A stretch of DNA of 64,000 bases, taken from Escherichia coli. GTDB taxonomy: Bacteria; Pseudomonadota; Gammaproteobacteria; Enterobacterales; Enterobacteriaceae. The stretch lies in NCBI RefSeq assembly GCF_016903815.1, contig NZ_CP069973.1; one strand, written 5' to 3'. Shown piece by piece: positions 59,788-61,992 of this stretch (positions are counted from its first letter, which is position 1; each line of letters opens with the position of its first letter). The notes beneath the pieces are model-generated. The model had not been told where the DNA came from. It was given only the letters and a program-made list of their open reading frames with translations, and made no database searches. The position numbers and the translations under genes were made by a program.

Positions 59788-60087
59788 AAATCATCCTTAA
59801 TTAACTGGTATGGAAGGTCACTCGTTGTCAAACCCGATTATGTGATCAGGTTGTTATTATTTAGATTAATGTTTAAATTTTTTAATTTCTTGATGTGAAG
59901 TTGATGAAACTTTGAAAATTTAATATTCTTAATTATTCCCTTCTTTATAAGAAGAGCAAGGTGCCATCATTAGAGTGACAGAGTGGGATGTTTAAGATCA
60001 TGCTTCAGATTATTTTTTGTTTCTCTGCAGTGAATTAATAATCATCACAGATAATTTCATTCTGAAATTACTTCTTTTGGGAGTGTT

Positions 60088-61509
60088 TTAATCTTGATGA
60101 ACTATGTTTTTCATAAGGAACATACACTCGTTGATGCTTTTAAGGTATTTTCTCATTTCTGAGGATGTTTTGTCGTAATCGAGCATAAAATTATTAAGTT
60201 CTTTATACACATCATTATTTAGCTTTACATTGTCGCGGACTAAAGTTTGTATCAATGGTATCAAAATTTCGAAACGGGACGGTTTGTCATCAATACTTGC
60301 CAGGGTTTTGAATACTCCTGTGTATCTGTAACCTAAGTGCTTATTGACAAGTTGAGTGTTCCATCGACCAGGCATAATATCTTCACAGCACAAATTTTTT
60401 ATCCTGGTATTAGTGAACGATGTTCCAAATATGTTGCTTTTTTTAATGAAGAGGTTATTTATTTCTCCATTCGAAAAGATGGTGTTTGATAAGTCACTTT
60501 CAAAACATGATATATTGGATAATACACAACCAAAATAATACCCATATGAAAGATTGCTCTTTTCTATTGTTATATTTGATAGCAATAGTTTATTTATATT
60601 AATATTATGGGTAATCAAATACTGAATTTTTTGCTCGTTAAGTTCATACATCTCCAGTGATTTATTATAGGGTAATAAAAGTATAAATTCCTTTATATTA
60701 TCTCCGCAGTAAGAAAAGACAACGCCAAATTTATTGGTGACCATGTTTTCAGTTGAGCAGTAAGCTGATTTTTCTATTAACCGACTGGGCACGCTTTTAA
60801 ATAAAGATGATTTTTCACATAGTTGTGAATATGCCGCATTGCTAGTTTTAAAATTCCGCCATGTTATTTCCTGGTTATCATCTGTCGATGAGGCGGGGAT
60901 TTTCAAGCATTGTTCATTGTATAGCTCAGGATAAATATTTTTTTTAATTAGATTTTTGATTTCCTTATTAAAATAGCTTTTTTTCTTGTCTATTGCACTG
61001 TATTTAGCGTTTTGTGACTTCTCCTGATGATAAAAAAATGACTGGAGATGTTTGCAGGCGTCATAAAATATCTCAGGAATATATAGCTGCGGGTATATTT
61101 CCTGGTTGAAATTTGCTTTTAAAAACTTAATGAATTTTTCATAGCATTCTTGATATGTTTTAATTTCTTCAGAAAGACATTCGCTTGTTCTGTCATCAAA
61201 AACATCCAATCTAAGTAATGTGATTTCTTTGTGTTTAAAAAAAGAAAATTGAACTGTATGTTCTATGAGTTTACATCTATAAAAATGCGCATCTCTTAGA
61301 TGAGTGTATTGAAAAAAATGATGAAGGACTGGAGATGGTTTAGGCAAATCCTGGCTTCTAAAAAAGTCATCAAACAAAATTAAGAACTCTGTTTTATACT
61401 CGCAAAACACTTTTACTAACTCATTTTGTCTTGTTTTATTTATTATTACATCGTCTGCTATATTTGATTTATAAAGACAATGTGGCGAAGTTGAGATACC
61501 ATCTGTCAT
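60088..61509 (-). CDS. pentapeptide-repeat protein resembling EspX-family type III secretion effectors
   Basis: 473-aa low-GC ORF; pentapeptide-like run SNISCFESDLSNTIFSNGEINNLFIKKSNIFGTSFTNTRIKNL; location matches where I recall espX1 in O157:H7. Confidence 0.6.
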   Translation of the reverse strand: MTDGISTSPHCLYKSNIADDVIINKTRQNELVKVFCEYKTEFLILFDDFFRSQDLPKPSPVLHHFFQYTHLRDAHFYRCKLIEHTVQFSFFKHKEITLLRLDVFDDRTSECLSEEIKTYQECYEKFIKFLKANFNQEIYPQLYIPEIFYDACKHLQSFFYHQEKSQNAKYSAIDKKKSYFNKEIKNLIKKNIYPELYNEQCLKIPASSTDDNQEITWRNFKTSNAAYSQLCEKSSLFKSVPSRLIEKSAYCSTENMVTNKFGVVFSYCGDNIKEFILLLPYNKSLEMYELNEQKIQYLITHNININKLLLSNITIEKSNLSYGYYFGCVLSNISCFESDLSNTIFSNGEINNLFIKKSNIFGTSFTNTRIKNLCCEDIMPGRWNTQLVNKHLGYRYTGVFKTLASIDDKPSRFEILIPLIQTLVRDNVKLNNDVYKELNNFMLDYDKTSSEMRKYLKSINECMFLMKNIVHQD

Positions 61510-61941
61510 TATCAGTCCTTGAAGTTGATGAATTTTTATTAATTTAATTTATGAGTGAATGTGACTACTATCAAAAATCGCTCATTAATTTTAAGAAGTA
61601 CAATATAAATAGGTAGTTAACCTGTGTTGATTGCTGTCAATAATTTACAAGGTCTAATAAGGAGATATTTATGAATGGTTAAAGTGTATAGGAATTTAAT
61701 TCAAAAATAGAGTGGTCTTAAGTTTAATACCTCAATGTGTATCACAATCTCCACATTCTGTGTAGGGGGAGTCTGAAGATTGAGTAGATATTCTTATTCA
61801 GAATGTATCAACCGATGATTCTACGATTTTTAAGTCACGAAGAGTTCAGAGAGTGTAACTGCATGTCTGCAAGAACCAGCATCTTTTGACTATCTGGCAA
61901 CCGGCAGTGTGTTTTCTCACACATCACAAAGCAGCAGGTAT

Positions 61942-61968
61942 AAAAAAACCCGCTTGCGCGGGCTTTTT
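61942..61968 (-). terminator. rho-independent terminator of rpsT
   Basis: AAAAAAACCCGCTTGCGCGGGCTTTTT. Confidence 0.8.
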
Positions 61969-61992
61969 CACAAAGCTTCAGCAAATTGGCGA

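Follow-up and report, generated by a model that had tools for sequence, protein, structure and literature searches.

Escherichia coli 7/2 carries, between nhaR and rpsT, two long non-coding stretches on either side of a gene annotated as a type III secretion effector, and a first-pass annotation of this DNA had taken both for strongly AT-rich promoters of foreign origin that are bound by H-NS, silent under laboratory conditions and in need of a specific anti-silencer. Does the base composition of these stretches set them apart from their surroundings, and what would it imply for the expression of the genes that they precede? We addressed this question in a window of 64,000 nucleotides (contig NZ_CP069973.1 of assembly GCF_016903815.1), to which all coordinates refer. 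Our main reading, to which we assign a probability of roughly 0.65, is that both stretches represent intergenic, regulatory DNA of the known, old and foreign-looking O-island 1, and that H-NS lowers the expression of espX1 and of the adjoining fimbrial operon.

Limits and gene content of O-island 1

The locus corresponds to O-island 1 (OI-1; z0020-z0025 in EDL933), a 6.9-kb accessory block with the 3' end of nhaR on one side and the rpsT terminator on the other. Its edges (~55039 and ~61938) were set by an empty-site E. coli allele and by the IS1 allele of K-12, and on the right the homology to the empty-site allele resumes at 61939. The existence of an empty-site allele and the IS1 replacement in K-12 agree with the earlier description of the genes as accessory. 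The island contains espX1 and a Yeh-like chaperone-usher operon, with every gene in the orientation of rpsT; read in the direction of rpsT, the terminator of that gene is followed by a spacer of 430 bp, espX1, a spacer of 300 bp and the operon. Locus, gene order and flanks (nhaR and rpsT) are the same in O157:H7 EDL933, and in strain Sakai the content of OI-1 is referred to as a 'yeh-like' fimbrial cluster plus espX1 (ECs0025) (PMC7098969). The locus is thus far from new DNA, being a named island with annotated genes. Across the spacers and espX1 the nucleotide identity between strain 7/2 and O157:H7 is 94%, and O157 is without 14 bp (61869-61882) that strain 7/2 has.

The espX1 gene (60088-61509, minus strand) encodes a protein of 473 residues that RefSeq annotates as type III secretion effector EspX1. 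The product is 86-91% identical to proteins named EspX1, which makes it a member of the EspX family by sequence; a pentapeptide-repeat domain was matched at sub-threshold level only (Pfam Pentapeptide_4, E=0.063), and Qnr models gave values of ~1e-3, far under their cutoffs. The fimbrial operon (55086-59787, minus strand; assigned by Pfam, NCBIfam and annotation) brings together genes for a major subunit, a periplasmic chaperone and an usher, namely the pilin gene (59254-59787; Pfam Fimbrial, 7e-9), the chaperone gene (58521-59204; PapD_N, 3e-41, and PapD_C) and the usher gene (56058-58508; Usher, 7e-167, and PapC_N/C), along with an adhesin-like gene (55086-56045), all on the minus strand. 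The pilin matched the NCBIfam YehD model at 3e-36 and 124.7 bits, under the cutoff of 136. The adhesin-like protein has a signal-peptide-like N-terminus and gave no match to Pfam or NCBIfam, and its gene is labelled 'fimbrial family protein' in the RefSeq annotation of O157. This gene is one intact ORF of 319 aa in strain 7/2, whereas in O157 it is frameshifted into ORFs of 108 aa and 227 aa, presumably z0021 and z0020. Annotation, Pfam and NCBIfam revealed no regulator gene inside the island.

Base composition of the spacers and of espX1

Both stretches were found to be non-coding and to lie between annotated genes, as had been proposed. The 300-bp stretch from the espX1 stop to the pilin start codon (IG1, 59788-60087) has a GC content of 29.7%, and the 483-bp stretch from the espX1 start to the rpsT stop (61510-61992) one of 34.8%, compared to 50.4% for the whole window and 51-52% for the flanking core. 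Since the spacers differ from the flanking core in this way, the observation of AT-richness stands. Outside the island the lowest GC content was 30.3% in 300-bp windows and 35.2% in 483-bp windows, so that neither spacer was matched; relative to the other intergenic regions of the window that reach 100 bp (n=24; mean GC 43.0%, sd 6.8%), z was -2.0 for the 300-bp stretch and only -1.2 for the 483-bp stretch. The latter is uneven, with 25.7% GC in the 218 bp next to espX1 (61510-61727) versus 42.3% in the remainder (61728-61992). The AT-rich region of some 480 bp that had been described upstream of espX1 thus shrinks to these 218 bp, the rest being at 42% and ending in the rpsT terminator. The poly-A/T tracts that had been reported for both stretches fared unevenly as well: A/T homopolymer runs of at least 5 are no more frequent than composition predicts in the DNA ahead of the pilin gene (2 observed, 2.3 expected, p=0.70) and show a marginal enrichment in the longer stretch of 483 bp (6 observed, 2.3 expected, p=0.03).

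The signal had been tied to non-coding promoter DNA, a link that is contradicted by the espX1 coding sequence, which is equally AT-rich (31.0% GC; 35, 27 and 31% at the first, second and third codon positions). It is the most AT-rich gene in the window and a true outlier, the lowest 1422-bp window outside the island having 43% GC. Together with its flanks, the whole of espX1 is part of a continuous AT-rich block of 1.94 kb (59788-61727) with 30.2% GC. The island as a whole has 37.0% GC and the fimbrial operon 39.5%, compared to ~52% for the core, and the values are low at all three codon positions; the foreign composition that had been ascribed to this DNA is borne out by the island (37%) and by the espX1 block (30%) alike. 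The AT-richness is an inherited composition of the island that peaks in 59788-61727 and is not peculiar to its promoters.

Candidate promoters and other elements in the spacers

Within the upstream region of espX1, the 218-bp AT-rich part (IG2a) showed a mean pairwise diversity of 3.2% among nine E. coli, compared to 7.9% at the third codon positions of espX1. In the comparison with E. albertii it aligned without gaps at 75.7% identity, which corresponds to a JC distance of ~0.29 versus a dS of ~0.63 for espX1, although this conservation may be overstated, as AT-biased sequence saturates at lower apparent divergence. The best candidate for the espX1 promoter, judged from its consensus match and its conservation, is TTGATA-17-TAAATT (61574-61546, minus strand), with a predicted transcription start near 61539 and a Shine-Dalgarno sequence, AAGGA, shortly before the ATG (61509). 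All nine E. coli and E. albertii share the same -35-like hexamer, and the -10-like hexamer differs in E. albertii (TAAAAT) and in one strain of E. coli (TAAGTT). A 24-nt block, AATGAGCGATTTTTGATAGTAGTC (61563-61586, minus strand), covers the -35-like hexamer plus 12 nt upstream and is identical in strain 7/2 and E. albertii; in some E. coli lineages positions 61565-61566 and 61579 are substituted. When species-representative genomes were scanned for exact copies of this 24-mer, only E. albertii had one, so that no wider phylogenetic footprint was possible. An alternative espX1 promoter (61630-61602) was rejected because E. albertii has not kept its -10 hexamer. Promoter-like sites are found here at 3.6 per kb compared to 0.2 per kb in the thr operon (~17-fold), but they were not enriched over composition-matched shuffles (7 found, 11.3 ± 2.9 expected), which makes promoter assignments weak. 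The following 211 bp (IG2b, 61728-61938; ~40% GC, not notably AT-rich) are the least conserved part of the region, with 65% identity to E. albertii and 28 gap columns, and are kept in K-12 beside IS1. They are bordered by core DNA (61939-61992) that holds the rpsT intrinsic terminator (minus strand), which is bidirectional in form and consists of a strong GC hairpin (61949-61962) and a U7 run (61948-61942).

IG1 presumably holds the promoter and the 5' UTR of the fimbrial operon. Among E. coli its pilin-proximal part (59788-59960) is well conserved and its espX1-proximal part more variable; with E. albertii it gave no alignment. By consensus match, TTAAAA-18-AATAAT (59885-59856, minus strand), ~70 bp upstream of the pilin ATG, is a weak sigma-70-like candidate. 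Between espX1 and the pilin gene no intrinsic terminator was found on the minus strand.

That the spacers hide a discrete element, be it a SAM-V riboswitch, an sRNA, a fimS-like switch or a small protein gene, we consider extremely improbable. An Rfam search of 59000-62600 in E-value mode returned a single, sub-threshold match, to the SAM-V riboswitch (RF01826; 61602-61667, plus strand; 32.1 bits, E=0.016), which we rejected, as it scores under the gathering score of 41, is antisense to espX1 with no plus-strand gene downstream and lies in DNA of 26% GC. A 15-nt inverted repeat (59761-59775 and 59932-59946) brackets the pilin start, but an invertible switch of the fimS type was rejected as well: one arm is inside the pilin coding sequence, three strains have a substitution at 59935 that the other arm does not compensate, and the island has no recombinase gene. 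For a locus of this size we estimate that ~0.6 repeats of this kind are expected by chance. A 29-nt direct repeat common to both spacers (59896-59924 and 61520-61548) was considered as a common operator and rejected as unsupported; in other strains the upstream copy has an 8-bp deletion and substitutions, and the 13-nt exact core of the repeat is, by our estimate, near chance in 7.5 kb of AT-rich DNA. A scan of the locus for tRNA and tmRNA found none, and RNA folds of both spacers on the coding strand gave z of ~-1.3 (-1.28, unremarkable, for IG1), the rpsT terminator being the sole notable structure. ORFs wholly within the spacers are all of 49 aa or less and are without support; two longer mechanical ORFs (62 and 110 aa), which run into the spacers antisense to the pilin gene and to rpsT, are likewise unsupported.

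Age of the island and predicted control by H-NS

Of 5426 genomes, 3612 (about two thirds) carry the espX1 region at a coverage of at least 80%; 1199 genomes have kept the genes for chaperone and pilin, and the operon is intact in 22% of complete genomes. Genome comparison showed that most espX1-carrying E. coli (about 2400 of the 3612) have lost a segment of 2.44 kb (57390-59831) and with it the N-terminal part of the usher, the chaperone and pilin genes and 44 bp of IG1; the junction in O104:H4 has a 3-bp microhomology. In E. albertii, espX1 and its upstream region are found at the same site, with the fimbrial operon reduced to scars. The island is therefore old rather than recent, and many lineages have seen it decay independently of one another.

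This history could be that of a decaying relic, in which the AT-richness is donor composition only, the genes are heading for loss, so that the spacers have no regulation of consequence, and any binding of H-NS is incidental. The repeated independent inactivation speaks for such a relic, as seen in the 2.44-kb deletion, in the IS1 replacement in K-12, in the empty-site allele, in the frameshift of the O157 adhesin gene and those in espX1 of O104:H4 and LC-1302, and in the deletion scars of E. albertii, and so does the unusual diversity of espX1 (dS up to 0.18 within E. coli). We nevertheless hold it to be unlikely, since dN/dS of espX1 is 0.24-0.46 in every pair, including 0.25-0.29 in the comparison with E. 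albertii, and indicates purifying selection, since espX1 is intact in strain 7/2 and in most sampled strains, as is the fimbrial operon in strain 7/2 and in the 1199 genomes, and since IG2a is more conserved than synonymous sites.

Features favourable to H-NS are concentrated in the AT-rich block. A/T runs of at least 6 occur there at 36-41 per kb compared to 8.5 per kb in the core, contiguous A/T runs of at least 6 that contain TpA at 29-37 per kb compared to 7 per kb, and the top three 500-bp windows for these features in the 64 kb are all inside 59770-61729. H-NS prefers AT-rich DNA with TpA steps over A-tracts and spreads from nucleation sites (PMC8476142); with tracts in IG1 no more numerous than chance predicts, the argument from poly-A/T is a weak one. 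The published high-affinity H-NS motif TCGATAAATT (a 10-mer) had no match with up to one mismatch in the spacers or espX1. A full-text literature search retrieved no H-NS ChIP, footprint or hns-mutant data for the locus and no H-NS, Ler or expression study of the espX1 or OI-1 promoters. On sequence grounds, binding of the locus by H-NS is very plausible.

The genes might instead be unsilenced, with a low constitutive expression that starts at AT-rich promoters of their own or reads through from the strongly transcribed rpsT, the spacers then being ordinary promoter and UP-element DNA. Read-through would be helped by the common orientation of all genes with rpsT and by the lack of an intrinsic terminator between espX1 and the pilin gene, but it would have to pass the strong GC hairpin and U7 run of the rpsT terminator. 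Values of fold change are given for ECs0025 in an RNA-seq table of PMC5931665. Deletion of z0021 (fmrA), a distal gene of the Yeh-like operon, results in higher motility of O157:H7 on laboratory media according to PMC9387321 and PMC10877973, which implies that the operon is expressed to some extent in O157:H7 rather than fully silent. We nonetheless think it very unlikely that silencing plays no part here. In genome-wide studies of H-NS, DNA of ~30% GC over ~2 kb falls within the range generally reported as bound, and the espX1 block is of this length and composition.

In our preferred reading, in which H-NS lowers expression of the island, H-NS would nucleate on the dense TpA-containing A/T runs of 59788-61727 and polymerise across the block, thereby lowering the activity of the candidate espX1 promoter (61574-61546), of the fimbrial promoter within IG1 and of spurious promoter-like sites inside espX1. 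Expression would probably be low but leaky in standard culture, and would rise with conditions or general counter-silencers that loosen H-NS, so that a dedicated anti-silencer encoded by the island would be unneeded. The specific anti-silencer that the first-pass annotation had called for is pure conjecture, as the island has no regulator gene.

The OI-1 operon is of the same class as the cryptic chaperone-usher operons of K-12 (yad, yeh, yfc and others): it encodes a YehD-like pilin, the DNA 5' of it is AT-rich, and no condition is known to induce it. In PMC3559732, many of the chaperone-usher operons of E. coli are reported as cryptic and repressed by H-NS. As opposed to yeh, which is near-universal, the OI-1 operon is intact in only the 22% of complete genomes given above, and its control by H-NS is predicted. 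A second likeness is to the LEE and non-LEE effector genes of EHEC and EPEC, which are silenced by H-NS and counter-silenced by Ler (described as an H-NS antagonist in PMC10877973): espX1 is AT-rich and of an effector family, but unlike those genes it is chromosomal rather than prophage- or LEE-borne and is carried by some two thirds of E. coli, and the literature search brought up no sign of its regulation by Ler or another factor. Silencing over upstream and intragenic AT-rich DNA, as we propose for OI-1, is known from the bgl operon, the classical cryptic locus under H-NS (PMC2646131), where it was demonstrated experimentally, whereas for OI-1 it is predicted only.

Low GC content in accessory E. 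coli DNA with probable control by H-NS is textbook knowledge, and H-NS silencing of the OI-1 spacers is, judged from their composition, a reasonable and unremarkable expectation. Our analysis adds a corrected map of the bases that are truly AT-rich, of the end of the island and of the position of the rpsT terminator, evidence from E. albertii that the island is old and was eroded independently many times, and a concrete candidate for the espX1 promoter that is testable. The conservation of IG2a also invites a further reading, which we regard as distinctly unlikely, namely that the 218-bp 5' region of espX1 is under purifying selection, with a promoter-proximal block kept since before the split of E. 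coli and E. albertii, and that espX1 is specifically regulated and functional in commensal and LEE-negative carriers. On such a reading espX1 might be regulated by a chromosomal factor that binds at ~61569-61586 and might act without the LEE type III system; H-NS would then provide the baseline silencing, the extreme AT content having been maintained rather than ameliorated. If espX1 were indeed regulated and functional in non-pathogenic E. coli, this would bear on the reasons for the routine scoring of 'effector' genes as virulence factors in the genomes of commensals.

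Composition of the espX1 locus

The locus, whose composition, anatomy, edges and conservation were observed directly, is 100% identical in the region under study to that of E. coli strain 7/2 (NZ_CP023820.1; window position = NZ_CP023820.1 position + 36893). Read along the minus strand, it comprises rpsT (61993–62256), a 483-bp spacer (61510–61992), espX1 (60088–61509), a 300-bp spacer (59788–60087) and a fimbrial operon made up of Pfam-confirmed pilin (YehD-like, 59254–59787), chaperone (58521–59204) and usher (56058–58508) genes and a distal gene for a 319-residue adhesin-like protein (55086–56045). 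These genes converge with nhaR (54149–55048, plus strand), and a GC hairpin (CTCCCCC...GGGGGAG) at 55056–55080, which is kept in E. albertii, is probably the terminator common to nhaR and the adhesin-like gene. The counterparts are O-island 1 (OI-1, z0020–z0025) in EDL933 and the 'yeh-like' cluster plus ECs0025/EspX1 in Sakai.

The first-pass annotation had singled out the two spacers as strongly AT-rich, non-coding leaders with poly-A/T tracts. GC content was 29.7% for 59788–60087 and 34.8% for 61510–61992, against 51–52% for the flanking core genes and 50.4% for the entire window, and outside the island every equal-sized stretch of the window has a higher GC content than either spacer; the AT-richness therefore stands. 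Spacers of core E. coli are AT-rich in any case, and relative to the 24 other intergenic regions in the window (43.0 ± 6.8% GC) the 300-bp spacer lies at z = −2.0 and the 483-bp spacer at z = −1.2. The extent of the longer leader needs correction: only 61510–61727 is low in GC (25.7%), whereas 61728–61992 (42.3%) is not and ends in the rpsT terminator (hairpin 61949–61962, with a U7 run on the minus strand). Nor is the bias a property of non-coding DNA, as the espX1 coding sequence is as AT-rich as the spacers (31.0% GC; 35, 27 and 31% at codon positions 1, 2 and 3), with FYMINK residues making up 41% of the EspX1 protein; the lowest-GC stretch of the same length (1422 bp) outside the island has 43%. 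The true anomaly is therefore an unbroken 1.94-kb block, 59788–61727, at 30.2% GC. Upstream of the pilin gene, homopolymeric A/T runs of at least 5 are no commoner than the composition predicts (p = 0.70); upstream of espX1 their excess is only marginal (p = 0.03). The clearest tract excess is within the espX1 coding sequence (46 runs of at least 4, versus 27 expected).

Selection and candidate elements upstream of espX1

Compared with its neighbours espX1 is hypervariable, with a mean pairwise nucleotide diversity of 5.3% and dS of up to 0.18 within E. coli, versus 0.2% diversity in the adjacent rpsT. Its dN/dS of 0.24–0.46 over all pairs (0.25–0.29 against E. albertii) points to purifying selection that is weak but real. 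The 218 AT-rich bp upstream show a diversity of 3.2% versus 7.9% at espX1 third positions, and align to E. albertii without gaps at 75.7% identity (JC distance about 0.29 versus dS of about 0.63); this segment has diverged less than the synonymous sites of espX1, although AT bias can inflate apparent conservation. Within it, a 24-nt block on the minus strand (61586–61563) is the same in the window's strain and E. albertii and includes a −35-like TTGATA that is invariant in all ten sequences compared. The −10-like hexamer varies (TAAAAT in E. albertii, TAAGTT in one E. coli strain). From consensus match and the conserved −35-like hexamer, we infer that TTGATA-17-TAAATT (minus strand, 61574–61546) is the best candidate for the espX1 promoter. 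Promoter-like hexamer pairs are abundant, being about 17-fold denser (3.6 per kb) than in the thr operon, but they are fewer than in composition-matched shuffles and their density thus reflects base composition.

Other elements sought in the spacers gave little. A match to the SAM-V riboswitch (61602–61667, plus strand) scored 32.1 bits, below the Rfam gathering score of 41 (E = 0.016), runs antisense to espX1 with no gene downstream and sits in 26%-GC DNA; we judged it a false positive arising from AT composition. A 15-nt inverted repeat (59761–59775/59932–59946) flanks the pilin start codon in the manner of an invertible switch, but one arm is within the coding sequence, three strains carry an uncompensated variant and no recombinase gene is nearby. 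Both this repeat and a 29-nt direct repeat common to the two spacers (59896–59924/61520–61548, 83% identical) are poorly conserved across strains and near chance expectation for AT-rich DNA. The spacer region yielded no tRNA, and no intrinsic terminator was found on the minus strand between espX1 and the pilin gene. Open reading frames wholly inside the spacers are all of 49 codons or fewer and none is supported; two longer mechanical ones (62 and 110 aa), which reach into the spacers antisense to the pilin gene and rpsT, are likewise unsupported. Coding-strand RNA folds of both spacers were unremarkable (z about −1.3).

Predicted H-NS control and expression

Judged by genome-wide H-NS studies of E. 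coli and Salmonella, a 2-kb tract at 30% GC would almost certainly be bound. TpA-containing A/T runs of at least 6 cover 31–40% of bases in the two spacers and espX1, versus 5–6% in core DNA, and when the 64 kb are ranked by such runs the top three 500-bp windows all fall in 59770–61729, the highest within espX1. According to a review of protein-binding data, H-NS favours contiguous A/T of at least 6 bp with TpA steps over A-tracts, and spreads cooperatively out of nucleation sites (PMC8476142); many of the chaperone-usher operons in E. coli are described as cryptic and H-NS-repressed (PMC3559732). These A/T-run features and precedents suggest that espX1 and the fimbrial locus would be under H-NS control. 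Occupancy of the AT-rich block by H-NS is predicted with a probability of roughly 0.85; that standard culture would bring substantial repression is somewhat favoured. The need for a dedicated anti-silencer seems doubtful; no regulator gene is encoded within the island. The earlier proposal that both genes are likely silenced by H-NS and need a specific anti-silencer is a plausible prediction, but imprecise in four respects: the tracts, how far the signal extends, whether it is confined to non-coding DNA, and the terms 'silenced' and 'specific anti-silencer'.

A literature search returned no study of how H-NS or Ler acts on espX1 or the fimbrial operon, or of promoter activity at either, and nearly all of the roughly 100 papers that name espX1 do so only as a virulence-database match. 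In O157:H7, deletion of z0021 (fmrA) or of the entire OI-1 raises motility on laboratory media (PMC9387321, PMC10877973), an effect that implies some expression of the operon under those conditions, in its distal part at least.

Edges, age and erosion of the island

In the empty-site allele of E. coli Z1323CEC0015 the nhaR–rpsT gap is only 95 bp, and homology to the window breaks at 55038 and resumes at 61939, which defines a 6.9-kb island of 37.0% GC. This allele may be the ancestral state, or it may have arisen by clean deletion or by replacement. The empty site holds a 51-bp filler (L007:5950–6000) with its own hairpin (GCAGGCCGAATTTTGGCCTGC), and the nhaR allele there is divergent (93.5% identity). 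In K-12, IS1 replaces nearly the whole island, leaving 138 bp of the adhesin-like gene and the counterpart of 61728–61992. Of 5426 complete genomes, 3612 carry the espX1 region at ≥80% coverage but only 1199 have the chaperone and pilin genes; the fimbrial operon is intact in that smaller number. The remaining ~2400, about two thirds of the espX1 carriers, have a 2.44-kb deletion (57390–59831, 3-bp microhomology) that takes the usher N-terminus, chaperone, pilin gene and 44 bp of the pilin leader and leaves the other part of the 300-bp spacer; it is found in O104:H4 and many phylogroup A/B1-type strains.

Other variable sites occur in the window. The AT-rich mokC–nhaA spacer (52332–52916, 585 bp, 38.5% GC), fourth in the window by A/T-run coverage, is a second variable site, adjoining nhaA: at its equivalent, the empty-site E. 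coli and E. albertii have three added genes (a Tsx/OmpK-like channel, a sulfatase and a 415-aa hypothetical protein). Annotated in otherwise core DNA are an IS3-family IS1397 transposase (22125–23473) and an IS200C tnpA (34245–34703), and a small variable region past nadR carries annotated pseudogene fragments (17858–18212).

The order in E. albertii is rpsT, a 475-bp spacer (34.5% GC), an espX1 ortholog (68% amino-acid and 78.5% nucleotide identity; 31.1% GC), 142 bp and nhaR. Those 142 bp (L014:9417–9558) hold two fragments of the adhesin-like gene, corresponding to 55832–55890 (E = 3.5e-6) and the 3' end (55086–55108), scars of a fimbrial operon once there and since deleted. The nhaR–rpsT site of the common ancestor of E. 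coli and E. albertii therefore already held espX1 with its 5' region as well as the fimbrial operon. Decay extends to espX1, frameshifted in O104:H4 and LC-1302, and to the adhesin-like gene, which is one unbroken reading frame in the window's strain. In O157:H7 (L002:2298–3258) a frameshift breaks this gene in two: an N-terminal ORF of 108 aa, which has a signal peptide and is presumably z0021, and a C-terminal one of 227 aa, presumably z0020. On that reading FmrA (z0021), published as a motility repressor, may be a piece of a fimbrial tip protein. Compositionally foreign yet old, the island has been eroded many times independently. The locus is the previously described O-island 1 and behaves as expected for any AT-rich accessory locus.
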